Shown piece by piece: positions 1 to 27,738 of a DNA stretch of 32,000 nucleotides (position 1 is its first letter; every line of letters starts with the position of its first letter). The position numbers and the translations under genes were made by a program. This DNA is from an uncultured bacterium (GTDB taxonomy: Bacteria > Auribacterota > JACPWU01), in the NCBI GenBank assembly GCA_964640155.1, contig CAZXEQ010000005.1:154353-186352 (forward strand), read 5' to 3'. The notes below the pieces were generated by a model. The model was not told the origin of the DNA. It worked only from the letters and a program-made list of their open reading frames with translations, and ran no database searches.

Positions 1-1828
1 GTTTTACTTCTTCCATTGCTTCATGAATCAATAAAGAGAGCAAAAATTCTACCCTGTCATGAAAAAGATTTTCCCCTATAGCTTCGTTATAATCATGAAT
101 CGTTTCGTAATCCTCTTGATTCACAATAATATGTAAAATACCGTTCTCAACATAGCGTCTGGCTTGAACATCCTTCACATCCTTCGAACGATAAAATTTT
201 ATTCTTCCTTCAGCCAAAGCTCTTTGAATACGCTTAAGGGCTTCTTCATATTTTGAATGTTGAGACAGACCAGGTGGGGTTCGATCACGAGACAATTGAT
301 CCAATTCTTTTCGCTTTAAAATTTCTTCTATTGCTGCCTGTATTTCCGTCTCTTTCTCTATCGGTTCTGCTTGAGATAAATCAATTTCATCAGATACAGT
401 ACAATGTCCTTCTACAGGAGAACCCACATATTTTGCTGCTCCTGAAATTGATCGTTCCGATTCTTTTGCTCGTGCGACCAACGAATCAGATGTTCTTTGA
501 ATCGCAGAAATACTGCGAGAGGGATCTTGCATATTAGAGATAAGAAGTTCTTTATATTGTTCCACCCAATAATCATTAAATCCTGCTTTTCTTAATCTTT
601 CTAAAATCCTACTTAAGAGTTGATTTCTCTGATTATAATCTCCCATTCTCTTCAATACTTCATCCAAAACTTCATGCCTTTCTTCCTCTGAGTTAAAACT
701 TAAATAAGGGTAAACTAGTTTGAAATATTCTTTAATTTCATCTACATCTCCTCCATCAAACACTGCTAACTCTTTTAGCGCTTTTTCAAATCTATCCTCC
801 TTAGTTTCGATCTTTGAAAGATCTATCAAACTAACTCTTCCAGAACCATCCACATGAAATAAAAGATGTTTCGGTTTAACATCTATAAGGCTTGTCATCA
901 ACATGAGCATTGCTAATTCTATTTTTTGTTCTCTCGTCATCATTTCACATGGATTACTGCTTGTTTCAGATTCCTGATATTCTGTAACCATATAAACTTC
1001 AGGTACTATCCCCCACCAAAGATCTCTCATTTGATATGTGACAGCAGGGGGAGATTGAATAACCGAAAGACCTAATTTCTCCATTACAATTCTGACGAAA
1101 ATTTCATTATAAAGAGCGTCGAACCCCTTCTCCATTCCGGAAAGAAAGCCTGTATCAGAATCTCGCTTCACAACATACTTCTTCCCATTAATTTCAACAA
1201 CTCTCGCATCCCCAACGGTTCCTCCTAGTCGTTCACCATTTAAAGTATGAGGGAACACCCCGTCAAAAAGCACTCTCACTTGATCCTCATTTAAAATGGC
1301 ATTGTGGAGCTTTGACACTACAACTTCTTTAGTTTTAGCAAAATAATCTCTAACCATTTGAGTTAATACAGAGTCTTTGCCAAAAGCTTTTTCCATCGAG
1401 GTTATCCAAAGTTGAACTTGAGCAGGATTTGAGCCATCTGCTTCTGGAAAATTAATAAAAAGAGATAACAACCGAAAGAGAGCATTTTGCTCTCTTTCAT
1501 CGAGCTCTGACCAAATCTTCGAAAGCCAAGATTCAAAAATATCTCGCGGAGATAGTCCTTTCCTAAGACCCTCTCTAAACTCACGAATCATGATATCTTC
1601 AAGAACAGAACGCTTATCTGCTGCAATATCTGACCATCTGTCTCCTGTGACAAGAGGAGTCTGTAAGGTTTCTTTAGATACTTGCGGATCAAATATTATC
1701 TGATCAATTGAAGAGTCTGCAAAAGCGTTTTTGAGGTCAATTCCCGAAAAGTCGAAAAAGAAGGTTAAAGAAAGACATATGGACAATGCCTTCGTCATAA
1801 AAGGTTTTAAACTATATTGAAATAACAT
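1..1828 (-). CDS. Exported hypothetical protein, 3' end cut by the window edge (at least 609 aa). It has a signal-like N-terminus, a 99-aa module paralogous to the giant ORF, and a protein-kinase-like core.
   Basis: Absent from the ORF track because no stop codon lies in the window. My manual minus-strand translation from ATG 1828 stays open for 609 codons down to nt 2. It starts MLFQYSLKPFMTKALSICLSLTFFFDFSGIDLKNAFADSS. A purine-rich GGAAGAAGG tract lies just upstream of the ATG, and the gene has its own promoter. Confidence 0.75.
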   Translation of the reverse strand, partial: MLFQYSLKPFMTKALSICLSLTFFFDFSGIDLKNAFADSSIDQIIFDPQVSKETLQTPLVTGDRWSDIAADKRSVLEDIMIREFREGLRKGLSPRDIFESWLSKIWSELDEREQNALFRLLSLFINFPEADGSNPAQVQLWITSMEKAFGKDSVLTQMVRDYFAKTKEVVVSKLHNAILNEDQVRVLFDGVFPHTLNGERLGGTVGDARVVEINGKKYVVKRDSDTGFLSGMEKGFDALYNEIFVRIVMEKLGLSVIQSPPAVTYQMRDLWWGIVPEVYMVTEYQESETSSNPCEMMTREQKIELAMLMLMTSLIDVKPKHLLFHVDGSGRVSLIDLSKIETKEDRFEKALKELAVFDGGDVDEIKEYFKLVYPYLSFNSEEERHEVLDEVLKRMGDYNQRNQLLSRILERLRKAGFNDYWVEQYKELLISNMQDPSRSISAIQRTSDSLVARAKESERSISGAAKYVGSPVEGHCTVSDEIDLSQAEPIEKETEIQAAIEEILKRKELDQLSRDRTPPGLSQHSKYEEALKRIQRALAEGRIKFYRSKDVKDVQARRYVENGILHIIVNQEDYETIHDYNEAIGENLFHDRVEFLLSLLIHEAMEEVK

Positions 1829-1978: not shown

Positions 1979-4900
1979 TTAAGCTGCAACCTCAATTTCA
2001 GCCGGAGATCTTAAAACATGAGGAACACTTCGTGGCAACCCTGAAACTGCCTTTAAAACAGATTTTTTTAGAGAAATAGCGGTATCCGAAAGAGGTTGAT
2101 ACGCTTCCAACGCACGATCAAGCGCTTCTACAGAAGCTTGTGCAGAATCTAATTTTGACTTCAAAATCTCTGCTAATTGATGTGTTAACTCTTTTAAGAA
2201 TTGATCCCTTACTGATCCATCTAATATTGCATCTGCCCGTCTGGCACCTTCGGCTATCGCTCCTGCAAAATCGAAAGAATTACTAGCTTGTCGATAAGAA
2301 GCTAAAAAAGTTCTTATTTCTCCTTTTAGGACTTCTAAAGAATTCATCGTACTGAGAGGCGTCGCTTCGGTCCCTTTTTCCTCTTTCAACTCAATCTGAT
2401 TCAATTCAAGTTCTACACTCTGTCCACTTTCATCTTTTAACCAATGGATTTGAAGTGTCCCCTTCTCTTCATCGTAACTTAACAACTCTGGGAATGTATT
2501 CGATAACTCATTGAGATCTCTTAAGTAATATTCATAATCTCCTTCCGTTAAGTCTATTCTCCTTTGCCCTCTTAACACTCTCTCATGCAGTTCTTCTAAC
2601 AAATGATAATCCTCTTCACCCATCGCCTTCTCTTTACTTCGATCCTTCATTATTAAATATTCTTCTATTTTCTTAATTTTCTCTGCATCCAATGTCAGTT
2701 TTGTTCCTTGCCCTATTTCTCTTTCAAGGCTCTTGTTTTTCTTTTGTATGGCTTCTCTTAAGGTGTAGTAACCTTGTACTACTTGCTCTGTCCAAAATCT
2801 ATCAAAGGCCTCCAACCCTTCTGCCTCTAGTTTTTCTTTGAACAGTATGGCAAAAGAGCGATCCTGTTCTGTATGTTTTGCATTTCTTAATGTCTTCATA
2901 TCTCCAACTAAGATGAGTCGATCTGAAGCTCGACTCAATGCTACATTCAGCCGATTGATATTGGCGACAAAGCCTACTTTGCTTGGATCTGGGTTACTTC
3001 TTACAAAGCTATAGATGACTACTGCATTTTCTCTTCCCTGATAACTATCTACAGTCCCTATCTGGCTTTCTACGATAGCTTGTGCCTCATCTTTCTTCAT
3101 CTTTCTTTCTCTTATTAGATAGTCTCTTATCTTTTCTCTGATTAACTCTACCTGCGATTGATACGCTGATAATATACTTATCTGTTCTGATCTATACCCA
3201 GATGCCAATGCCCTTTTGTATTCTTCTAAGCATTTGTTTGCTTCTTCTGTGTTTTGATAGCTTGTACCCCTAGCTTCTTCATTGCCTGAAGCTTTTTTCA
3301 TAGGGACATCAACTCTTCTTACTGTGTCTTCTTCCATCATTCGCCATGTCTTAGGAACCATCATTTTGTTATAAATGAGTCGGCCTATCATGACGGATAT
3401 CACAGGATGGCTTCTATAGTTACGAGCTAAAAATGTTTGGGCTTGTCCTTTGTTCCATCTTCTTGCCATTCCACTTTCTTGGATCATTGCCCGATAGATG
3501 TCTGTTTGACCTTTCATCGCAGCTTCATCTATAAATGGCTCTAATTGTAAATGGTCTCCTGCTAAGATGATCTTTTCTTTTGCTTTTGCTCCTGCCAATA
3601 CCGTATCTATCTCATTGACGGTTCCTGCTTCATCTATAATGACAACATCATATTCTTGATCTGCCGTCTCCGGCACTCGATACATGGAGTCTGTTGTGAC
3701 TCCAACCACATATCCCTTTCCATTTGTTTTCCTTTTCTTAAACTCTTTCATTCCTTCCCCGTTATAGCCATCCTCCCTTGCTTGATTCCACACTTGATAT
3801 TTTCTTAGAGACTCTATAACTCGATCATCTCCTCTTCCTTCTTCTCCTCGACTATACGCTCTTAAAATAGGAACTTTATTTCGATCCAGTCGCTCTAATA
3901 CATTGTCTACGGCCAGATTTGTCCGACTGACCACCAATACTCTCTTGCCTTGCTTCACCAGCTGCTGTGCTATTTCTACCACTGTTGCGGTCTTCCCACT
4001 TCCTGCTCCTCCTTGTATCAACGCTACTTTTGTCCTAGGATGTAAGGCCATCCTTACAGCATTGGATTGGAATGGATCTTGAGCTACTCTTTCATCTTGG
4101 ATCTGAATCTTACTTTTCTCTTCGCTGATTTCTTCTTTATTGATTGTCTCTGGTTTTTCAAGCCCTAAAAGTTCTCTCGTTGCTCGACTTAAACCATTTC
4201 TTACTTGAGCTTTTCCTCCGATTGCTCTGAGCCTCTCTATTTGTATAGCTCTTAAGGCAACATTATTGCCTAGCTCTTTTTCTTTGCCTTCAACCATCTC
4301 TTTTAATTCTCCCAAAACGTTTTTCAGCTCCTTACTCTGAGAGCTATGTCCTACCTCTCCGGGTAGTTTTAATGATGTTACTTTGGCTTCTCTGTTATAT
4401 TCTTCATCTAAGATGCTTATTTCTGGTAATGCAATTCCAAATCGCCGGGCTGCTTCTAGAAGCGATTCATTGGGCTCTTTTCCATTGAGCAATGCCCAGC
4501 TGTCATTCGTTAGTCCTCTCCTTACTCTATCCTCTAACGCTTGCTCTACCAGACCGGGACTGGAATACCCTTGCGCTTTCATCACCCGCAACATCCAATG
4601 TCCATGTATAGGTGATTTAATCAGTCGACTTAATCGCGTGATCATTCTACCTTCAACTTCTCTTTGCGTCTCATAAATCCATTCTTCTAATGTTTCATCA
4701 TAAAATCGTCTCACTTTTACTTTGCCAGGTTTTCCAATTCCTGTGGAAAGTATAGCTTTCTTGTGCTTTCCATCATCAGTCCAAGAAAAATGGACTCTAC
4801 CACCGCTATACACTTCTGTTTTCCATTCCAAAGGTTCAAACCCATCCTTATTTTGGACATCTTGAGCCTTAAGCTGTTGAATAACTTTTTCTTTATTGCG

Positions 4901-7900
4901 ATCAAATATTTCAAGCTTCCAGAAATTTTTGCCCTCTTCCTTAACCAATCTAGATTGTTTTACAATTTCTTTTTGATTTTCTCCCTTCCCTTCTACTCGA
5001 CGCGTCTCATATACCCACTCTTTCAGATCTTCATCATAAAATCGGCTCGCCTGAACTCTTCCCTTTTTCATAGTGCCCGTAGCAAGACGAGCTCTCTTTT
5101 TCTGTCCATTGTCTATCAAAGAAAAATTAATTTGTCCGTAATTGTCTGATTCTGTTTCCCACTGCAGGGGCTCAAACTTATCCTTATTTTGGGCATCTTG
5201 GGCCTTAAGATGTTGAATAACTTTTTCTTTATTGCGATCAAACATTTCAAGCTTCCAGAAATTTTTGCCCTCTTCCTTAACCAATCTAGATTGCTTTACA
5301 ATTTCTTTTTGATTTTCTCCCTTCCCTTCTACTCGACGCGTCTCATATACCCACTCTTTCAGATCTTCATCATAAAAACGCCTCACTTTCACTTGTCCTT
5401 TTTTATTAACTCCTGTGGAAAGACGAACTTTTTCTATGTGTGCATTGTCCCTCCAAAAAAAGCCAACTAATCCAGCACTATCTGTATCTACAGTCCACTC
5501 CATAACCTCAAACGCATCCTTATTCTTGGCATCTTGGGCCTTAAGTTGTTGAATAACCTTCTCTTTATATCTATCAAATATTTCAAACTTCCAGAAATTT
5601 TTACCCTCTTCCTTAACCAGTCGTGATTGTCTAATTATCTCTTGCTTATTTTCCCCTTTCCCCTCTACACGCTGAGTCTCATACACCCATTCTTTAAGAT
5701 CTCTATCATAAAAACGCCTTACTTGAACTTGGCCTTTTTTCCCAGTCCCTGTAGAAAGATAGACCTCGTTTCTCTGTTCATTATCGGTCCAAAAAAAACC
5801 AACTAATCCAGCACTATTTGTCTCTACAGTCCACTCTAAGGGTTCAAATGTATCTTCATTTTGAGCATCTTGGGTCTTAAGCTGTTGAATAACCTTTTCT
5901 CTATAACGATCAAAGACTTCGAATTGCCAATAACCTTGGCCTTCTTCCTTAACCAGTCGTGATTGTCTAACGATCTCTTCTTGTTTTTCTCCATCTCCTT
6001 CTACACGTCGCGTCTCATAAATCCATTCTTTGAGCTCTTCATCATAAAATCGTCTTACTTGTACTCGGCCTTCTTTAGCAATGCCTGTGGAAAGATTCAC
6101 TGTCTTTTGCTGTTCCTTATCCGTCCAAGTAAAACTGATTAATCCTTTACTATCCGTATCTACAGTCAACTCTAGAGACTTAAATACATCCTTATTCCGA
6201 GCATCTTGAGTTTTAAGTTGCTGAATAATTTTCTCTTTATTGCGATCAAACCTTTCAAAATGCCAGTGATTTTGACCTTCTTCCTTAACCAGTCGTGATT
6301 GTCTAACGATCTCTTCTGCTTTTCCTTCTACACGTCGAGTCTCATAAATCCATTCTTTGAGCTCTTCATCATAAAATCGTCTCACCTGAGCTCTGCCGGT
6401 TTTAGCAATCCCCGTAGAAAGAATAACTGTCTTTTTCTGTTTATTGTCCGTCAAAAAAAATTTGACTTGACCATAAGCACTTGTATCTGTGATCCATTCA
6501 ATGGGCTCAAATGCAGTAGGTGACTGATCATCCAATTGTCGAAGTTGGCGCAAAACATCTACTCTTGCTTCTTTAGCTTCTAGCTTGCGATATTGCACTT
6601 CTTTCATCAAAGCTCCAGGTTTTATAACTCCATACAGATCAAATAAAAATGGATTTAATTGTTTTATTTCTCTCTGTAATATTCTCGCATCTTCTTCTGC
6701 AAGCTCTTTTTCTAATATCTCTTCATCAGGTTGCTCTCCAATTGGTGATTTCTTCAAAAATTCATGTACGGTTTCATGAGACATTCCAGTTAAAAACGAT
6801 GCTCTACGATGGGTTTTATCTTTGATATTCAAAAAGGCAAGGATATTGATGTAGTATTGGCCATCTGTTTTATGATTACCAAAAAGGGTTCGGTATTCTT
6901 TTTGGGTTCGATCCGATCCAAAATGAAGGGTAAATGGCCCAGCTGTTAATTCTATTCCCTGTAATCTATGTCGACTTCGAATAATTTTCCCCAATTCTGC
7001 ATAAAACTCATCACGACTCATGTCTGTTCCCACACCCATGGCCTTTTCCAAGCGTTTTAATTCTGGACTTTCATCAAATTTAATATCTCCATTCGTTACA
7101 GTAAACGTGACGTTTTTCCCATCCAATGCCTGATACGTTTCTGCATCTTCTGCCTCCGTTGGAGCAGCAAGGCCTTCGTTAACTTCAGCACTAAAATGGG
7201 CAATCTTTATCGTTTTATTTTCTTCGTATGTTCCCTTTCGCATATCATTCTTAAATTGTAAATATCCCCATAGGGTTAATCTACGTTCTTTCCAAATCTT
7301 ATTTCTATTATCTAATTGCTCCAAATGCTGTTTATATCTGGGCGTCTTTATATCATCCCTAGTTGCAAGTAATCGAGATAATTGACGATCTTGAGCTTCT
7401 TTTGTTAACTGGACAATTAATTCTTCATTAGCCTCACCTTGTTTATATTCTCTCTTCACCCCTTCAAAAAAATCACGATCCAAATATCCATGCAAAGCTT
7501 GAAAATAGTAATTTGTCTCTACTTTTCTCAACTCTTCTATAGAGGCTTGAATAGATGTTATAATATTTTCTAATTCTGATTCATCAGCCCTTCCCTTTAC
7601 AACTTGATTTAATAACTCAAAAAGTTTTTCTTCTTCTTTGCGTTCGATCTCTTGTCTCCTCTGAATATCAGCAAGAAGTCCCAAAACGCTTCTTTCTTCT
7701 AAAAGATAAATTTGCTTACGGGTATATTGGGGAATTGCATTTTCATAACTAAACGCTACAGAAACCCCTCGATCAACTTTTTTGTCGTTTCTTCCTTCAT
7801 AATTCATTAATACATAATCAACTTCATGTAATGCTTTATTTCCGATTGCTACTACCTCTTCATCGCCTTTCGTTGCCGCCGCTTCTCCACCTTTTCTTCC

Positions 7901-10900
7901 ATAGTGACATAAGGCCGTCGTTACAGCATGCGTTACATATTTGGCTTCTTGACTATCTACTTCTAAAGAGCCACGATAAATCGTCGTTACCAGTTGAATC
8001 GTAGTAATAATGAAACCTTTATCATCTACTCGATATCCTATTTCTTCCATTAAAGCTAGAACTTCGATTTTGTAACTTTCATCTACTTTTAAATCTTTCA
8101 ATAAATCGCTAAAAGCGTATCTCCCTTCATTTTCCTTAAGTCTAAGTTTTGACCGCAGGGAAATCATTCCAGGCAATAAATAAGGATTTGTAGTTTGATC
8201 AGCTAATTCTTGAATTAAATCGCTGCTATATGAAACAATAGCGTTCGCATGATTCAAAAGCAAAGCCCTGACACGATCTTTAAGTGAGTATGCATCACTT
8301 ACTTCTTCTTCCTTAAGATAAGCGATTCTGAGATGTAAAAACGGATTTTGGGAAACACTAGTCCATGTCTTATCCTGAATGCCTTCTACACGCGCAAAAT
8401 CTTGATATCCAAAACTGTCACTCATCACAAGCAGGCCTATATCCACGAGATTCTCCTGGGAGATACTTTGAATTTCTTTCTCATTTTCCAGTCTAATAAT
8501 ATCGCCTAAAAGCAAAGCTTCTAAACCCTGATAAACCAATGGAGCATCCTTGCCCTTTAAATCAAAGCGGTTCATCACTCGGCTTAAAATCTGTATATCT
8601 TCTTCTTTCTGGAGTACCCCTTTAGAAAATAATACCGCAAAAAACTGAGGCCCCCATAGAGAACCTAGCCATTCCTGATCAATCACGTCTTTCAATAACT
8701 CTCTCATCTTAGGAATATTCTCCGCTGTCAATGCTCCTTGAGTCACCAAGCGGTTTATAACGCGATAACGATTCATCGTTTTTCTGCTTACAGGTTTTGA
8801 CAATCCTTGAAACCAATTTCGAGAATTTTCTAAATTCTCTTCGGTCTTTGCACCGCTTTCAAGAAGAGAAGAAAATGCATCTAGAGCCAAAGGACCGCTA
8901 ATCCATGGTTCACGACTAATGACTTCAACAACATGCAAAAACCAATCTTTGTTGCCGGGGTTTATATCTTCTGGAAGGCTGCCCAAAACCTCAAAACGCT
9001 TATCTTTAAATGAGTCATGATTGGCATCAATCTGGTCTATCACTTCTACAATAAGATCAAGATTTAATGTTCTAGAGTATAAAACCTGCGCTACGATGCC
9101 TCTTGCGACCAATAGACTAAAAACACGTTTGGTTTTCCAATTATTTGTCCAGCTTCTGTCCGCTATTTTTTCTAAAGTTTCCAATAAAGAATTCTGCATT
9201 TGTTCAGGATAGCTATCAAAGGTAACAGATATAAACTGCAACATTTCAATAACAGCACTTGAAGATGCCGGCCTCAGTTGAGCAATCCTATCCATCCAAT
9301 TTAAAAACTCTGCAAGGTTTTTTTCTGTTATTACACCCGATTTCACCAAACCGATAAAAACTTCTTTTCCCCTAGGAATTCTTAACCACTTATCGTTTTT
9401 AAAGGTTTCCAAAAAATCACTGATGGTTTGAACAATATCTTTTAATTTTTCATCTTCTGCAGCAGCACTTTCTAAATCACGAATAAGCGCTCTTGTTAAA
9501 TCAGACATAACAACTAGAGGGACAACTACTGAAGCAAGCTCATCTTTTTTCTGCCCCTCTAAACTTTCAAAATATTCTCTTACAATCTGAGTTAAAACAG
9601 AATCTTCTCCAAAAGCCTTGTTCATCATGTCTAACCAAATTTTAGCTTGTGTTGGATTTGAAGCATTCGCTTCAGGGAAATTCACAAATTGTGACAACAA
9701 AGTTCGCAAAGATGTATGTTCTTGTTCATCTAAACCATCCCAAATCCTAGAAAGCCAACCTTCAAATATTTGGCGCGGGGATCGGCCTTGTGCTAAACCT
9801 TCCCGTAAATCATCTGCCATCATATTCTCAAGAACAGGTCGTTTTGGCTCTCCAATTTGAGCCCAAATATTTCCTGTAGGAGCAGGATTTTGAAGCATTT
9901 TCTGAATTTCACTTGAGCTATGCCCCACTAAACGTTTTTCAGAAAATTCTACATTTTCTAAATCATAGGCCTCGTCCATCATGATTCTTTCATATAAATC
10001 AGAAGAAATATCTCCATTCACTTGAGGGGTCCATGTGGTATACGAAATCCCCTTTGCCTCTAAAAGCTTTTGAATTCCTTCGGTGTGAAAGCCACCGGTG
10101 ATTAAAATGATTGTACGCTGTGCAGCTTTGTTCATATTTTTTAAAGCATTCTCCAAAAGAATTTGGTCTCGTTTTTGAGCTAATTCATAAAAATGTTGGG
10201 CTTCTTGAATGAGTAAATCCCAATCTTTAGAGAAAGAAGGAGATTTTAGAGAAGTAAGCATGAAACCTAACTGTCGAAACAATTCTTGAGGAGATTTTTC
10301 AACTGTTTCTACAAGTTCTTTTCTTGAAAGTTCTAAATTGATCCATTTCTGCAATAAATGCCATTGTTCATTTATTTTTACAATATTTTCTACCTTTTCT
10401 TGATCCGCTTGTTTCTTGATTTGTTCATCTATCAATTGCGATAAATTTAAATGTGCTTTATCAAAATCAATTTTCCCCTGCTGCTGAAGAAAATCAATCC
10501 AAATTTCCAGTGTGGGGTATTGTCGCTTAAAAGAGTTTTTACTGATCTTTTCTTCAAAAATATTTTTCAAGAAAGAAAAGTGTTTTACAGTGGATAATTT
10601 GCCTAAACGATATTCCAAGCTACTTCTTACAACATTTTGAAGTTCTTCTCTAGAGAGTCTGTTCTGAAAGGATTGCAACAACTCATTATATTCTTTTTGT
10701 ACCTTTGCAGAATCAATCTCTTTTTGCAAAGTATTTAACTGCCATAACTCATTTGTTTTTAATAATTTATCTAAATCCGCTTTTTCGAGCAAAGCAATGA
10801 TCTTTTCCAAAGAAAATTTATTGCTGCTCATTCCTTTTTGAGCTTGATCTAAAAGCAGTAACTTTTTTGAATATGATTTCTTTTTAATACTTTCTAACCA

Positions 10901-11473
10901 CTGATTGAAATTTTCTATTTCGTCTTTAAGCTTTTGATAAAGCAACCGTGTTTGTCTGAAGGCCTTAAAATTTTCAAGATAAATTTCAGAATTTTCTACA
11001 CCCATCAAATCAATTTTGCTTTCAGGGCCTTCTGAAATCACTGCAAATTCTGCACCTGTTAAATACCCTTCATTCAAAAATTTCTTAGCTACATTTTTGC
11101 GAATATTCGAATCTGGAAAAGATTGATAGAGAAGTGTTCTTAGGGGCCCTTCAGCACCTTCTACAAAAACCTGATCAATTCCTTTTTGATTCAAAGCTAA
11201 AATACTTTGAGCAATTTTTTCTTGAGCCTCAGGCTGGCAATGTAAATCTCGTATTAGAAAAATATTATTCTTCGAATTACTTTGATAGTTTTTGCCTTGT
11301 ATCATTCCAGGCAATGAAAGATCTTTAAAAGAGATTGGTAAAGAGGCAGAAAAAGAAGGACTGGCTTCTAATGTAGAAACTACTCCGACATTTAAAATAA
11401 GATTAAAAACGAGAAATGGAACAAGAACCATTTTCAACCATCGATAGCTTTGTGAGGGACACAAAAATGACAT
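1979..11473 (-). CDS. Giant multidomain protein, 3164 aa. Contains a signal/anchor, TraB/Tiki-like halves, an HExxH region, two repeat arrays and an SF1 helicase.
   Basis: An uninterrupted 9.5-kb frame in an AT-rich genome, with an ATG start. The helicase motifs are unambiguous, and the internal repeats are in frame. All overlapping plus-strand ORFs are short shadow ORFs. Confidence 0.9.
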   Translation of the reverse strand: MSFLCPSQSYRWLKMVLVPFLVFNLILNVGVVSTLEASPSFSASLPISFKDLSLPGMIQGKNYQSNSKNNIFLIRDLHCQPEAQEKIAQSILALNQKGIDQVFVEGAEGPLRTLLYQSFPDSNIRKNVAKKFLNEGYLTGAEFAVISEGPESKIDLMGVENSEIYLENFKAFRQTRLLYQKLKDEIENFNQWLESIKKKSYSKKLLLLDQAQKGMSSNKFSLEKIIALLEKADLDKLLKTNELWQLNTLQKEIDSAKVQKEYNELLQSFQNRLSREELQNVVRSSLEYRLGKLSTVKHFSFLKNIFEEKISKNSFKRQYPTLEIWIDFLQQQGKIDFDKAHLNLSQLIDEQIKKQADQEKVENIVKINEQWHLLQKWINLELSRKELVETVEKSPQELFRQLGFMLTSLKSPSFSKDWDLLIQEAQHFYELAQKRDQILLENALKNMNKAAQRTIILITGGFHTEGIQKLLEAKGISYTTWTPQVNGDISSDLYERIMMDEAYDLENVEFSEKRLVGHSSSEIQKMLQNPAPTGNIWAQIGEPKRPVLENMMADDLREGLAQGRSPRQIFEGWLSRIWDGLDEQEHTSLRTLLSQFVNFPEANASNPTQAKIWLDMMNKAFGEDSVLTQIVREYFESLEGQKKDELASVVVPLVVMSDLTRALIRDLESAAAEDEKLKDIVQTISDFLETFKNDKWLRIPRGKEVFIGLVKSGVITEKNLAEFLNWMDRIAQLRPASSSAVIEMLQFISVTFDSYPEQMQNSLLETLEKIADRSWTNNWKTKRVFSLLVARGIVAQVLYSRTLNLDLIVEVIDQIDANHDSFKDKRFEVLGSLPEDINPGNKDWFLHVVEVISREPWISGPLALDAFSSLLESGAKTEENLENSRNWFQGLSKPVSRKTMNRYRVINRLVTQGALTAENIPKMRELLKDVIDQEWLGSLWGPQFFAVLFSKGVLQKEEDIQILSRVMNRFDLKGKDAPLVYQGLEALLLGDIIRLENEKEIQSISQENLVDIGLLVMSDSFGYQDFARVEGIQDKTWTSVSQNPFLHLRIAYLKEEEVSDAYSLKDRVRALLLNHANAIVSYSSDLIQELADQTTNPYLLPGMISLRSKLRLKENEGRYAFSDLLKDLKVDESYKIEVLALMEEIGYRVDDKGFIITTIQLVTTIYRGSLEVDSQEAKYVTHAVTTALCHYGRKGGEAAATKGDEEVVAIGNKALHEVDYVLMNYEGRNDKKVDRGVSVAFSYENAIPQYTRKQIYLLEERSVLGLLADIQRRQEIERKEEEKLFELLNQVVKGRADESELENIITSIQASIEELRKVETNYYFQALHGYLDRDFFEGVKREYKQGEANEELIVQLTKEAQDRQLSRLLATRDDIKTPRYKQHLEQLDNRNKIWKERRLTLWGYLQFKNDMRKGTYEENKTIKIAHFSAEVNEGLAAPTEAEDAETYQALDGKNVTFTVTNGDIKFDESPELKRLEKAMGVGTDMSRDEFYAELGKIIRSRHRLQGIELTAGPFTLHFGSDRTQKEYRTLFGNHKTDGQYYINILAFLNIKDKTHRRASFLTGMSHETVHEFLKKSPIGEQPDEEILEKELAEEDARILQREIKQLNPFLFDLYGVIKPGALMKEVQYRKLEAKEARVDVLRQLRQLDDQSPTAFEPIEWITDTSAYGQVKFFLTDNKQKKTVILSTGIAKTGRAQVRRFYDEELKEWIYETRRVEGKAEEIVRQSRLVKEEGQNHWHFERFDRNKEKIIQQLKTQDARNKDVFKSLELTVDTDSKGLISFTWTDKEQQKTVNLSTGIAKEGRVQVRRFYDEELKEWIYETRRVEGDGEKQEEIVRQSRLVKEEGQGYWQFEVFDRYREKVIQQLKTQDAQNEDTFEPLEWTVETNSAGLVGFFWTDNEQRNEVYLSTGTGKKGQVQVRRFYDRDLKEWVYETQRVEGKGENKQEIIRQSRLVKEEGKNFWKFEIFDRYKEKVIQQLKAQDAKNKDAFEVMEWTVDTDSAGLVGFFWRDNAHIEKVRLSTGVNKKGQVKVRRFYDEDLKEWVYETRRVEGKGENQKEIVKQSRLVKEEGKNFWKLEMFDRNKEKVIQHLKAQDAQNKDKFEPLQWETESDNYGQINFSLIDNGQKKRARLATGTMKKGRVQASRFYDEDLKEWVYETRRVEGKGENQKEIVKQSRLVKEEGKNFWKLEIFDRNKEKVIQQLKAQDVQNKDGFEPLEWKTEVYSGGRVHFSWTDDGKHKKAILSTGIGKPGKVKVRRFYDETLEEWIYETQREVEGRMITRLSRLIKSPIHGHWMLRVMKAQGYSSPGLVEQALEDRVRRGLTNDSWALLNGKEPNESLLEAARRFGIALPEISILDEEYNREAKVTSLKLPGEVGHSSQSKELKNVLGELKEMVEGKEKELGNNVALRAIQIERLRAIGGKAQVRNGLSRATRELLGLEKPETINKEEISEEKSKIQIQDERVAQDPFQSNAVRMALHPRTKVALIQGGAGSGKTATVVEIAQQLVKQGKRVLVVSRTNLAVDNVLERLDRNKVPILRAYSRGEEGRGDDRVIESLRKYQVWNQAREDGYNGEGMKEFKKRKTNGKGYVVGVTTDSMYRVPETADQEYDVVIIDEAGTVNEIDTVLAGAKAKEKIILAGDHLQLEPFIDEAAMKGQTDIYRAMIQESGMARRWNKGQAQTFLARNYRSHPVISVMIGRLIYNKMMVPKTWRMMEEDTVRRVDVPMKKASGNEEARGTSYQNTEEANKCLEEYKRALASGYRSEQISILSAYQSQVELIREKIRDYLIRERKMKKDEAQAIVESQIGTVDSYQGRENAVVIYSFVRSNPDPSKVGFVANINRLNVALSRASDRLILVGDMKTLRNAKHTEQDRSFAILFKEKLEAEGLEAFDRFWTEQVVQGYYTLREAIQKKNKSLEREIGQGTKLTLDAEKIKKIEEYLIMKDRSKEKAMGEEDYHLLEELHERVLRGQRRIDLTEGDYEYYLRDLNELSNTFPELLSYDEEKGTLQIHWLKDESGQSVELELNQIELKEEKGTEATPLSTMNSLEVLKGEIRTFLASYRQASNSFDFAGAIAEGARRADAILDGSVRDQFLKELTHQLAEILKSKLDSAQASVEALDRALEAYQPLSDTAISLKKSVLKAVSGLPRSVPHVLRSPAEIEVAA
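2894..4066 (-). other. Upf1/DNA2-like superfamily-1 helicase module of the giant ORF (aa ~2470-2860)
   Basis: Ordered motif set:
- Walker A GGAGSGKT (nt 3989-4012, checked against the DNA)
- motif Ia SRTNLAVDNVLERL
- motif II VIIDEAG
- motif III ILAGDHLQLEP
- motif IV NYRSHPVI
- motif V TVDSYQGRE
- motif VI RLNVALSRA
This matches the AAA_11/AAA_12-type Upf1/Sen1/DNA2 pattern. Confidence 0.85.
4574..6511 (-). repeat. In-frame tandem coding repeat: five full units of ~112 aa (336 nt) plus one degenerate unit (aa 1655 to ~2300 of the giant ORF)
   Basis: Unit starts (FEPxEW-like) fall at aa 1655, 1764, 1876, 1988, 2100 and 2212, giving periods of 109 then 112 x4. The consensus core is LSTGxxKxGxVxVRRFYDExLKEWxYETRRVEGxGExxxEIVxQSRLVKEEGxNxWxFExFDRxKEKVIQQLKxQDAxNKD. 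Confidence 0.9.
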
Positions 11474-14539: not shown

Positions 14540-14613
<74 letters not shown>

Positions 14614-14710: not shown

Positions 14711-14782
14711 GCCAGGGTAGCTCAGAGGTAGAGCGGGGCTCTCATAAGGCCTAGGTCGTGGGTTCGATTCCCCCCTCTGGCA
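14711..14782 (+). tRNA. tRNA with CAU anticodon: either elongator Met or tRNA-Ile2 (the lysidine substrate)
   Basis: Manual cloverleaf: acceptor GCCAGGG/CTCTGGC, D arm GCTC-AGAGGTA-GAGC, anticodon loop CTCATAA, T loop TTCGATT. There is one U50-C64 mismatch in the T stem. Met versus Ile2 identity cannot be decided by eye. Confidence 0.75.
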
Positions 14783-21297: not shown

Positions 21298-21573
21298 TTA
21301 TCCTTTAACTCTTTTTTTGCTATGCCATTTCTTAAATACCTTCGAGTCAAATTTTGAGAGTTCTAGATGGAAAGTCCACGGCAAAAAAATCACTAAAGTC
21401 ACATAAGCTAAATCTTCTCGGTGAGAATAATAAGTCTCAGCAAGAATCTTTTGCTTACGAAAAACCTTTGCTAAGCCTTCAAGATGGTTCACATCCTCTG
21501 TTGAGGAAGCATAGAGTTCCAGAACTTCTTTGCAACGATATGGAAGCTTTGTAATCTCATTAGTTTTTTTCAT
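21298..21573 (-). CDS. Possible small hypothetical protein (91 aa)
   Basis: This is the track ORF 21298..21645, trimmed to the internal ATG at 21573 (MKKTNEITKL). The upstream 24 codons run through the GC-rich repeat element. There is no recognisable family, and it may not be coding. Confidence 0.3.
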   Translation of the reverse strand: MKKTNEITKLPYRCKEVLELYASSTEDVNHLEGLAKVFRKQKILAETYYSHREDLAYVTLVIFLPWTFHLELSKFDSKVFKKWHSKKRVKG

Positions 21574-21699
21574 AAAAGTGTGTCCTTCCCAGATGCGGGT
21601 GATACTCGGCGGGGCGCCCCGCCGAGCGCAACGTTTACTGAGCACGGTGGGGCTGACAAGTAGCAGGACCCGCTACTTTTTCAAAGGACACACTTTTAT
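21572..21699 (+). repeat. GC-rich palindrome-ended element, copy A (candidate structured RNA or MITE-like)
   Basis: Perfect 16-nt terminal inverted arms ATAAAAGTGTGTCCTT / AAGGACACACTTTTAT enclose a GC-rich core. The 84-nt core aligns without gaps to copy B at 70/84 identity (hand count). Confidence 0.7.
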
Positions 21700-21734
21700 A
21701 AATGTAATCTTATAAAACATAAAGTGTGTTCACA

Positions 21735-21762
21735 TTGACAAAGCACTTAAGTCTACTATAAT
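21735..21762 (+). promoter_or_regulatory. Strong sigma-70-type promoter of the HAD gene
   Basis: TTGACA, 16 nt, TATAAT. Only 9 nt (ttccccact, no Shine-Dalgarno sequence) separate the -10 element from ATG 21772. Confidence 0.6.
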
Positions 21763-24227: not shown

Positions 24228-24289
24228 CTTTCACGATTCTATTCTAATACATTATGAGTCTTTTATCACTATTCACTATGATAGTATGC

Positions 24290-24418
24290 ATAAAAGTGTG
24301 TACTTTATACATGCGGGTGACACTCGGCGGGGGGCCCCATCGAGCGGGACTTTTGTTGAGCACGATGGGGCTGACGAGTGGCAGGCCCTGCTACATTTTT
24401 TAAAGTACACACTTTTAA
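24290..24418 (+). repeat. GC-rich palindrome-ended element, copy B
   Basis: Perfect 17-nt arms TAAAAGTGTGTACTTTA / TAAAGTACACACTTTTA. Same orientation and same core length as copy A. Confidence 0.7.
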
Positions 24419-24454
24419 TTGCATGATCTTCACTATACCCTATCCCCTTTTTAT

Positions 24455-26278: not shown

Positions 26279-26402
26279 CTCTTATCCAGAGTGGCTGAGG
26301 GAAAGGCCCGATGATGCCACGGCAACCGCTCCGATAATAATCGGGGGCCAGGTGCTAACTCCTCTATTCAAAGGAATTAAGCTTTGAATGGAAAGATAAG
26401 AA
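26279..26402 (+). promoter_or_regulatory. SAM-I (S-box) riboswitch aptamer
   Basis: CTCTTATCcAGAGtGGctGAGGGAaaGGCCCGATGAtgCCacGGCAACC...GGTGCTAAcTCC...aGATAAGA matches the conserved S-box core and P1 helix. Confidence 0.9.
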
Positions 26403-26487: not shown

Positions 26488-27738
26488 GTGAAAGTAACCA
26501 CTGAAAAGAAATCTTATGTTTTAGGCCTGCGTTGTCGAGAATGTAATAAAGAATATACTCAGCAACCACTTCATGTGTGTGAAGATTGCTTTGGTCCTTT
26601 AGAAGCAGTTTATGATTATCCAGCCATTAAAAAAGTTCTTTCAAGAGAAAAAATTCTTTCTCGACGTCCTACGATGTGGCGTTATCGCGAATTGCTTCCT
26701 ATTGATGGAGATCCAACAGTCGGACTCGAAGTTGGTTTCACCCCCTTCTTTCGCTCAAAACGCTTAGCCGAAGCACTTGGACTTCAAGAACTTTATATTA
26801 AAAATGATGCAGTTAATCACCCTACTCTTTCTTTTAAAGATCGTGTTGTAGCTGTAGCACTTTCTAAAGCAAAAGAATTTGGATTTAAAACCGTGGCTTG
26901 TGCTTCCACAGGAAATTTAGCCAATTCCGTCGCCGCCAATGCATCTCAGGCAGGGCTTGAAAGCTATATTTTTATTCCTGCTGATTTAGAGCAAGGCAAA
27001 GTTCTAGGAACCTTAGTGTTTGGAACAAATCTCATTGGCATTCATGGAACATATGATGAAGTCAATCGCCTTTGCAGTGAGATTGCAGATAAATATGGTT
27101 GGGCCTTTGTAAATATTAATATCCGTCCCTTTTATGGAGAAGGCTCTAAGACCTATACCTTCGAAATTATGGAACAAATGGGCTGGCGAGTTCCACAAAA
27201 TATCGTGGTGCCTATGGCAGGAGGCTCTTTGATCACAAAAGTTCGAAAAGCGATGAAAGAGTTTTACGATTTGGGTTTGGTCGAAGATCATTCAACCAAA
27301 ATTCATGGAGCTCAAGCCGAAGGATGCGGTCCTATAGTTCATGCGGTTCTTGCGGGTCATGAATTTTTTAAGCCTGAAAAGCCCAATACTATTGCAAAAT
27401 CTTTGGCCATTGGAAATCCCGCTGATGGTTTTTATGCCATTAAGACAATTCGAGAAACGGGAGGTTGGGCCAATGGAGCAACTGACGAAGAAATCGTAGA
27501 CGCGATAAAACTCTTAGCCTCTACCGAAGGGATCTTTACAGAAACCGCCGGAGGTGTTACGCTTGCTGTCTTAAAAAAATTGATTGCATCAGGGCATATC
27601 CCTAAAGATGAATCTGTTGTTTTATGTATCACGGGGAATGGTCTCAAAACTCAGGAAGCACTTGTGGGTAAAGTGGGCCAGCCCACATTGATTGAAGCAA
27701 AACTTTCAGAGTTTGATAAAATATATAAGAAACCGTAA
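26488..27738 (+). CDS. Threonine-synthase-family PLP enzyme with N-terminal zinc ribbon
   Basis: PLP-lysine motif HPTLSFKDR, and an N-terminal CRECN...CEDC. GTG start with AAGGGG upstream. Confidence 0.85.
   Translation: MKVTTEKKSYVLGLRCRECNKEYTQQPLHVCEDCFGPLEAVYDYPAIKKVLSREKILSRRPTMWRYRELLPIDGDPTVGLEVGFTPFFRSKRLAEALGLQELYIKNDAVNHPTLSFKDRVVAVALSKAKEFGFKTVACASTGNLANSVAANASQAGLESYIFIPADLEQGKVLGTLVFGTNLIGIHGTYDEVNRLCSEIADKYGWAFVNINIRPFYGEGSKTYTFEIMEQMGWRVPQNIVVPMAGGSLITKVRKAMKEFYDLGLVEDHSTKIHGAQAEGCGPIVHAVLAGHEFFKPEKPNTIAKSLAIGNPADGFYAIKTIRETGGWANGATDEEIVDAIKLLASTEGIFTETAGGVTLAVLKKLIASGHIPKDESVVLCITGNGLKTQEALVGKVGQPTLIEAKLSEFDKIYKKP

Follow-up and report, generated by a model that had tools for sequence, protein, structure and literature searches.

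Two copies of a GC-rich palindromic element are present in a 32,000-nucleotide stretch of DNA (hereafter the window) from an uncultured bacterium of the Auribacterota (JACPWU01 in the GTDB lineage; positions 154,353 to 186,352 of the forward strand of contig CAZXEQ010000005.1, GenBank assembly GCA_964640155.1). The two copies are probably insertions of a small, non-autonomous, hairpin-forming mobile repeat, similar in kind to the Rickettsia palindromic elements (RPEs), the closest precedent, and to MITEs (miniature transposable elements with inverted repeats). In common with MITEs, the element is small, has terminal inverted repeats, is dispersed in multiple copies, and is present or absent at orthologous sites. 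Its hairpin has no match in Rfam and keeps its base-pairing through compensating mutations. An earlier note, made from the sequence alone, had proposed the two copies as a candidate structured RNA, and had named a transposition footprint as the observation that would make them a plain MITE. This reading is partly supported. The conserved structure, the absence from Rfam and the preference for the plus strand are confirmed, but most of that footprint has been found as well.

Copy A (128 nt, positions 21572–21699) and copy B (129 nt, positions 24290–24418) are both on the plus strand. They are recognized by a covariance model of the element, with scores of 149.5 bits for copy A (model R1) and 142.6 bits for copy B. 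A search of the whole window with the covariance model finds these two copies only, and further copies, for which the earlier note had suggested looking, are found in other genomes (see below). The similarity between the two copies has sharp edges, with the onset at CATAAAAGTGTGT and the end at ACACACTTTTA, beyond which the flanks are unrelated and do not align. The 84-nt cores (21593–21676 and 24311–24394) align without gaps and are identical at 70 of the 84 positions. The GC content is 0.55 for copy A, 0.50 for copy B and 0.67 for the cores, compared to 0.38 for the window and 0.29–0.37 for the flanks, with the adjoining spacers at about 0.30. Recomputation thus gives the same coordinates, strand, sequences, core identity and GC-rich islands as the earlier note.

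The left arm of copy A, ATAAAAGTGTGTCCTT (21572–21587, plus strand), is the exact reverse complement of its right arm, AAGGACACACTTTTAT (21684–21699, plus strand). The arms of copy B have a C to A change relative to copy A, compensated in the opposite arm, and one terminal mismatch. The arm helices are perfect in both copies over 16–17 bp, for which 0.03 matches would be expected by chance. This compensated difference had been noticed before, although the arms are longer than was claimed then. The consensus of the arms in this lineage is TATAAAAGTGTGTCCTTT, and the terminal inverted repeats are 16–21 bp in length. Loci and proteins from outside the window are designated here by L and P numbers, respectively. 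The same arm sequence is shared by copies A and B, L002 and L028, and also P0001, as judged from the peptide in the last case. The arm motif is not found outside the arms of the element in the loci examined. The open reading frames (ORFs) in the element are read-through frames only. The element is within the size range of MITEs (under about 300–500 bp) and has no transposase of its own.

Empty sites and copies inside protein genes

Three syntenic loci, L027, L028 (GCA_016178005.1, labeled 'Chlamydiae bacterium') and L030, were reached through homologs of PolX, with 83, 75 and 72% sequence identity, respectively. The gene order ACT, PCD, a gene of 91–104 amino acids, HAD and PolX is kept in all three. 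The ferredoxin gene beside PolX is kept in L027 and L030, and a different gene is found there in L028. The spacer between the small gene and the HAD gene (site A) is 65 nt long in L027 and 74 nt in L028. In the window it is 199 nt, equal to 71 nt plus the 128-nt element. Site A is therefore empty in L027 and L028. Site B, the spacer between the PolX and ferredoxin genes, is empty in L027 and L030, and is not comparable in L028. The L028 locus is not free of the element, as a copy of the family with the same arms is located elsewhere in it.

At site B, the window has ATAGTATGCATA, the element, and then TTGCATGATCT, while the empty site in L027 reads ATAGTTTGCATATCT. The pentanucleotide TGCAT is found twice around copy B, at 24287–24291 and 24420–24424, and once in the empty site. 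This candidate target duplication is 5 bp long, or 7 bp with one mismatch per copy (ATGCATA on the left and TTGCATG on the right). Of the transposition footprint named in the earlier note, the empty sites and a plausible duplication at copy B are thus in place, but no clear duplication is seen at copy A.

Further evidence comes from two near-identical genomes, in which the element occupies one spacer in opposite orientations (L026, 2066–2209, plus strand; L004, 527–664, minus strand), with flanks that are 94–98% identical. The difference in orientation could be due to inversion between the arms or to two independent insertions. The arms are degenerate in both of these copies. A 9-mer beside the element matches at 8 of 9 positions as the reverse complement and at 6 of 9 in direct orientation, which is too weak to interpret. 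Three independent Logan short-read contigs from two samples (L024, L025 and L032) begin within copy B, as is usual at a repeat.

Another insert is found at the equivalent of site A in L030 (approximately 8520–8682). It is palindromic but unrelated to the element, with arms CGTATTTCG and CGAAATACG and a GC-rich hairpin, CCCTCCTTCGCCAAAGCTTCGAAGGGC. Hairpin elements may have a preference for the site A spacer.

Copies of the element are also located inside protein genes. A protein collection was searched with the translations of the element, and then with a focused peptide profile. The sense peptide of frame 0, AGDTRRGAP..ATF.EHGGADEWQDP, is found in three larger proteins among the matches listed (P0001, P0002 and P0003), which very probably belong to the genome of the window. 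P0001 is a penicillin-binding protein (PBP1, 733 residues). Its Pfam transpeptidase match ends at residue 490, exactly where the peptide starts, and a normal C-terminal PBP domain follows the peptide. P0001 also encodes the arm sequence of the window copies (KSVSF...KGPHFY). In P0003, a PabB/TrpE-like protein of 472 residues, the peptide is located in a variable linker, whose length exceeds that in homologs of known structure by about 24 residues. In P0002, a GT2 glycosyltransferase, the peptide is a spurious N-terminal extension. The focused profile search finds four further small ORF calls (P0004, P0005, P0006 and P0007) that are merely translated elements. Stop codons are absent from frame 0 in 4 of 7 typical copies, and therefore only some insertions can survive in an ORF. 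Gene callers produce spurious small ORFs from the element in the window as well (21298–21645, minus strand; 21530–21715, plus strand).

The hairpin and its conserved core

The element folds into one long, nested hairpin. The folding energies are −61 kcal/mol for copy A and −63 kcal/mol for copy B, compared to −39 and −35 kcal/mol for shuffled sequences (z scores of −6.6 and −7.3), and none of 200 shuffles folds as well. Helix P1 is formed by the arms, followed by P2 (GCGGGU/ACCCGC), P3 (YACUCG/CRAGUR) and P4 (CCCCRYCGAGC/GCACGRUGGGG). On the plus strand, P2 to P4 span 21595–21673 in copy A (P2, 21595–21600 with 21668–21673; P3, 21603–21608 with 21657–21662; P4, 21617–21627 with 21642–21652) and 24313–24391 in copy B (P2, 24313–24318 with 24386–24391; P3, 24321–24326 with 24375–24380; P4, 24335–24345 with 24360–24370). 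The unpaired segments are GA, which separates P2 from P3 on the 5′ side, CGGGGC(N) and CUGA around P4, and GCAGG, which separates P3 from P2 on the 3′ side. The inner helix described in the earlier note is part of P4, and its segments, coordinates and pairing hold for both copies: CCCCGCCG (21617–21624) pairs with CGGTGGGG (21645–21652) in copy A, and CCCCATCG (24335–24342) with CGATGGGG (24363–24370) in copy B.

The pairing was assessed with an alignment of six like copies (A, B, L002, L004, L026 and L031). Standard base pairs are found in 91.5% of the cells, compared to 38–49% when the 3′ partners are slid by 1–3 columns. Changes on both sides are found at five pairs, and the observed values are reached by 1–2 of 500 column shuffles. 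The conserved hairpin with compensatory changes, as claimed earlier, is therefore real. Support of this kind is equally expected of any hairpin element under selection.

One pair in P4 is G-U or A-U in every copy, with an invariant U. The opposite strand would have an A·C mismatch here, and the plus strand is therefore the one that folds. This agrees with the preference that the earlier note had drawn from the G-U wobbles. With DNA parameters, the element folds equally well (z scores of −7.3 and −9.0), and it may thus be either RNA or single-stranded DNA that folds.

An alternative partner for the inner helix, CGGCGGGG, is located at 21607–21614 in copy A, where the pairing is perfect, and at 24325–24332 in copy B, where there are one mismatch and one wobble. 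Two mutually exclusive folds, as in a switch, had been read from this. The alternative pairing does exist, but its reading as a switch is unsupported. It results from an internal near-repeat, in which ACTCGGCGGGG resembles GCACGGTGGGG, giving CCCCGCCGAG two possible partners. A terminator-like inner hairpin, GTAGCAGGACCCGCTAC followed by TTTTT (21660–21681, plus strand), is a second alternative, as seen from the sequence. Here GTAGC..GCTAC and the T5 run form a local hairpin in competition with P2. In copy B, the corresponding site is flagged by the scan, and the stem covaries to GAGGAGG/CCTCCTC in the L028 variant.

Scans with covariance models place the element in no known RNA family. There is no match to the element in Rfam 15, either at the gathering score for the window or at E≤10 for a 3-kb region. 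For the minimal 41-nt form (see below), the best match is DicF at 15 bits, compared to a gathering score of 48. Neither PLSDB plasmids nor INPHARED phages match the element by blastn. Pattern scans of IMG/VR give just a chance match in coding sequence, or single chance matches to the AT-rich arm, and a literature search with strings of the core sequence gives only unrelated primers and similar entries.

Several specific identities have been rejected. The hammerhead ribozyme is suggested by CUGACGA in some copies, but there is no GAAA after stem II, and the motif is missing from the copies of the Saccharibacteria type. A K-turn at the P2/P3 loop would need an A at position 2b, which is G here. 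A sigma-54 promoter in TGGCAGGCCCTGCT would need a spacing 2 nt longer than is present. In a CIRCE-like operator, the CACTC and GAGTG segments would be 9 nt apart, not 13, and both covary away in L006b. A small protein gene starting from the conserved ATG is contradicted by L011 and L020, which do not have this ATG, and few of the substitutions are synonymous.

Relatives of the element in other genomes were located with an exact-pattern scan, using the 20-mer GCGGGTGAYACTCGGCGGGG. The homologs are in three contigs of one Candidatus Auribacterota metagenome-assembled genome (MAG; JAYRIK01) (L002, L004 and L009), in two MAGs of Saccharibacteria/Saccharimonadales (L008 and L006), and in two metagenome contigs (L011 and L020). 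The other matches are due to chance, in high-GC coding DNA. L026 and L031 were found with the peptide profile, which translates the 20-mer, and the L028 variant does not have the 20-mer.

What recurs in the Saccharibacteria MAGs is a 41-nt core, GCGGGU-GA-CACUCGG-CGGGGC..GA-CCGAGUG-GCAGG-ACCCGC, with other arms or none. Its helices are GCGGGU/ACCCGC and CACUCGG/CCGAGUG. L020 is the minimal 41-nt form, GCGGGUGACACUCGGCGGGGCUGACCGAGUGGCAGGACCCGC, without arms and without P4. The P4 hairpins of L008, L006b and L011 are unrelated to that of the window copies, and the arms of L011, perfect over 19 bp, have a wholly different sequence. L006 has two copies within 8 kb of one Saccharimonadales contig, of which L006b is outside the 20-mer matches. 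In L006b, P2 is ACGGGU/ACCCGU and P3 is CACCUGA/UCAGGUG, a change on both sides at four pairs, and the unpaired GA, CGGGGC and GCAGG are unchanged. In L031, one C-G pair of P3 is changed to U-A. Selection thus acts on the core helices across phyla.

The copy in L028 (437–610, minus strand), recognized by the covariance model, has 21-bp perfect arms with the sequence of the window arms. P2 and CAGGACCCGC are also as in the window. Its inner core is different and longer, about 100 nt. The element thus seems to be built of modules, a portable core and arms that are specific to the lineage, and L028 is the converse, with the same arms around another interior.

Two other variants were observed. L006a (approximately 640–700, minus strand), about 30 nt past the stop codon of pnp, is truncated to an 18-bp stem around the loop GACACUCGGCGGGGCGUUAGG, in which the 5′ part of the core is kept and the 3′ strand of P3 is lost. 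In L009 (112–245, minus strand), the 3′ strand of P3, CUGA and GCAGG are replaced by a new hairpin, CCCCGAUGUGACAUCGGGG.

Gene context and other features of the window

Spacers of three kinds hold copies, in addition to the copies inside genes. Copies A and B, the L004/L026 copy and L011 are between divergent gene starts; L002, L020 and L006b are between convergent ends; and L006a (after pnp), L008 (before groES and its CIRCE operator), L028 and L031 are between co-directional genes. The neighboring genes include those for PolX, ferredoxin, a HAD hydrolase, a P-type ATPase, a TPP enzyme, MetK, PNPase, HolA, S20 and GroES, and have no common function. With divergent, convergent, co-directional and intragenic contexts, the element is not the 5′ untranslated region of a coherent set of genes on the same strand. 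The reading as a switch, an attenuator or a fixed non-coding RNA is not supported, given the empty orthologous sites, the mixed and intragenic contexts, the unrelated neighbors and the promoter-like sites downstream.

Promoter-like sites are located between each window copy and the downstream gene on the plus strand, and hence the copies are not the leaders of these genes. For the HAD gene, this site is a perfect match to a sigma-70-type promoter (TTGACA-16 nt-TATAAT; 21735–21762, plus strand), which is also found at the empty site of L027. The terminator-like ends of both copies, a hairpin followed by a run of T, would face the genes on the plus strand. An arm-like sequence, CATAAAGTGTGTT (21718–21730, plus strand), stands by itself 19 nt past copy A, where it immediately precedes the −35 box of the HAD promoter. 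At the empty site of L027, AAAACAAGTGGAATACAC resembles it more weakly. The arm-like sequence may be what is left of an older copy, or a target that the element prefers.

On the other side, copy A is abutted by the start codon (position 21573, minus strand) of a conserved gene of 91 residues (21298–21573, minus strand). This gene has orthologs of 91–104 residues in L027, L028 and L030, no Pfam match, and no assigned function. As its start codon abuts copy A, the leader of this gene must cross the whole element. A Shine-Dalgarno-like motif, AAGGA, comes from the right arm of copy A (minus strand), 9 nt before the ATG. In the folded transcript it would be buried in the 16-bp arm helix, and translation of the gene may thus be depressed or conditioned.

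Other features of the window were also observed. A SAM-I riboswitch (26279–26402, plus strand; Rfam RF00162, 77 bits) is located upstream of a PALP-family gene (26488–27738), which is followed by genes for ThiS, an NIL-domain protein, APS kinase and a 2-hydroxyacid dehydrogenase. The layout is the same in L024 and L027. A giant ORF (1979–11473, minus strand) of 3164 residues has a C-terminal SF1 helicase region (Pfam AAA_11, AAA_12, AAA_19 and AAA_30), and its segment at 4643–6515 consists of six or seven tandem units of 336 nt (112 residues) that are 67–85% identical. Two tRNA genes (14540–14613 and 14711–14782, plus strand) are about 100 nt apart, with Rfam scores of 64 and 63 bits.

Probable mobility, alternative explanations and known systems

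As a mobile repeat, the element would be DNA that is moved by an enzyme supplied in trans. Our first choice for this enzyme, held with somewhat less than even confidence, is an arm-binding transposase that would produce a short duplication like the candidate at copy B. Rather less probable is a structure-specific enzyme that reads the folded core, as in the repetitive extragenic palindromic (REP) sequences and their REP-associated tyrosine transposases (RAYTs) or in integron attC sites, or else an unknown RPE-type process. The pairing may be kept because the enzyme needs the folded or paired form, and because a compact hairpin is tolerated in transcripts. The unpaired GA, CGGGGC and GCAGG segments would be the likely contacts of the mobility enzyme, or of an RNA-binding protein. 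Within protein genes, the element survives if its insertion is in the frame free of stop codons. The target rule of IS200/IS605-type elements does not apply, as the copies have no common tetranucleotide on the 5′ side.

Several observations weigh against a mobile repeat of this kind. There is no transposase or recombinase gene in the window or adjoining any copy, and no parent insertion sequence or transposase in the approximately 250 kb of sequence examined. At copy A, at the L026/L004 site and at the other copies, no target duplication can be separated from the AT-rich palindrome. Loss of the element in three relatives would be an alternative to its gain here, although it is less parsimonious. 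The in-frame insertions in P0001 and P0003 are seen at the protein level alone. A usual MITE has conserved arms and a drifting interior, and the reverse is found here: a 20-nt stretch of the core is identical between the Auribacterota and Saccharibacteria MAGs, and the arms differ or are missing (L008, L020 and L006b). Such a pattern suggests that the core has a function of its own. The conservation of the 20-mer among the core-carrying DNA copies from other organisms is not independent evidence, however, because all of them except L006b were ascertained through it.

If the core is what matters, the 41-nt segment could be a new structured nucleic-acid motif common to Saccharibacteria, of the Candidate Phyla Radiation (CPR), and Auribacterota, with unpaired bases that bind a protein or ligand. 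It would drive its own spread independent of terminal repeats, or be a multi-copy regulatory RNA taken as cargo by mobile elements. We consider this possible but improbable. A little less probable again, the copies could be stand-alone genes for a structured small RNA, or a cis-acting switch, with a core that binds a ligand or protein. Such an RNA would start from the −10-like TATAAA in the left arm, and end at the inner hairpin and its U-run, or at the arms and UUUUAU. The retention of GA, CGGGGC and GCAGG in different phyla, alongside compensatory changes in helices P2 and P3 (four pairs in L006b, one in L031 and one in copy A), argues for such an RNA, as do the G-U pairs favoring the plus strand, the covariation of the terminator-like 3′ hairpin between subfamilies, and the armless 41-nt form of L020. 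It would be new, since Rfam does not have it. On the other hand, the sites are empty in relatives, copies are found within ORFs and in either orientation relative to their neighbors, and the neighboring genes have no common member. Promoter-like sites part both window copies from the downstream genes, and copy B lacks a convincing −35 box upstream. Moreover, single-stranded DNA folds equally well, and an RNA that ends at the inner hairpin would exclude the perfectly conserved right arm.

GTAG is a hallmark of REP sequences, and the Auribacterota-type core starts with it on the minus strand. The folded single-stranded core may be the substrate of a RAYT-type HUH transposase or a tyrosine recombinase, with the arms being secondary, though we hold this to be unlikely, to a slightly greater degree than the small RNA. 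The core is a GC-rich, imperfectly palindromic segment whose bulges are conserved. The terminal structure between the 5′ and 3′ core blocks varies from 0 nt (L020) to about 100 nt (L028), the copies in Saccharibacteria can be armless, and L026 and L004 have the element in opposite orientations at one place. However, no RAYT or integrase gene is present in the sequence examined, and the Saccharibacteria-type copies do not have GTAG. REP sequences are extragenic by definition, yet copies of this element are intragenic as well. Against an integron attC site, the R″ (RYYYAAC) and R′ (GTTRRRY) boxes are absent, and the two genes that separate copies A and B are kept in synteny by relatives lacking the element and are hence not cassettes. 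The least probable explanation, to which we give very little weight, is a host terminator or mRNA-stabilizing hairpin spread by recombination, with no mobility machinery of its own. The layout of A-tract, stem and T-tract on both strands would fit, as would the position of L002, L020, L006a and L031, which immediately follow stop codons where genes end convergently or co-directionally. But both window copies are between divergent starts, where no terminator is needed, some copies are within ORFs, and a conserved 41-nt core with conserved bulges is more than an ordinary terminator requires.

If the preferred reading, a mobile repeat, is correct, RPE-style behavior would reach well beyond Rickettsia, to uncultured bacteria of the Planctomycetes-Verrucomicrobia-Chlamydiae (PVC) group, with a related form in the CPR, and a palindromic repeat would survive in essential genes by being translated. 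The cross-phylum core, with its covarying helices, conserved bulges and absence from Rfam, is a candidate for a new hairpin motif recognized by a protein, in RNA or single-stranded DNA. In practical terms, such elements break short-read assemblies, give rise to spurious N-terminal extensions and small ORFs in gene calls (as in P0002 and P0004-P0007), and can rewire the leaders and terminators of their neighbors.

A comparison can be made with several known systems. The attC sites are also folded single-strand substrates with conserved extrahelical bases and very variable terminal structure, but this element has no R-box consensus, no cassette organization and no nearby integrase. REP sequences and REPINs are GC-rich, imperfect palindromes with conserved asymmetry, multi-copy and intergenic, with GTAG at the foot of the hairpin, as found here on one strand in Auribacterota-type copies. 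The differences are that no RAYT is seen here, that some copies are intragenic, that the Auribacterota form has long, AT-rich arms, and that the copy number is apparently low. The bacterial MITEs with hairpin transcripts (Correia/NEMIS, ERIC, BOX, RUP and SPRITE) are similarly small, non-coding and dispersed, with terminal inverted repeats and presence or absence between relatives, and can provide their neighbors with terminators, promoters or leader structure. In comparison, this element has no parent insertion sequence that could be found, and it has an ambiguous target duplication. In fungal mitochondria, mobile GC clusters and double-hairpin elements are also GC-rich palindromic islands in AT-rich DNA, located in spacers and in frame in genes. 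They are organellar, much shorter, and unrelated in sequence.

The RPEs are palindromic repeats of about 100–150 bp, found in spacers and, unusually often, in frame in housekeeping genes, with a conserved peptide (PMC10969869). The likeness drawn here is one of kind. The hosts here are uncultured Auribacterota of the PVC group and Saccharibacteria, not Rickettsia; the element stands out by its high GC content in an AT-rich genome; and a core shared across phyla has not been reported for RPEs. In other respects the two correspond closely. Both are palindromes of about 100–150 bp that form a long hairpin, with tens of copies or fewer per genome, and both have copies in spacers as well as an in-frame peptide in tolerated loop regions of unrelated housekeeping genes (PMC10969869).

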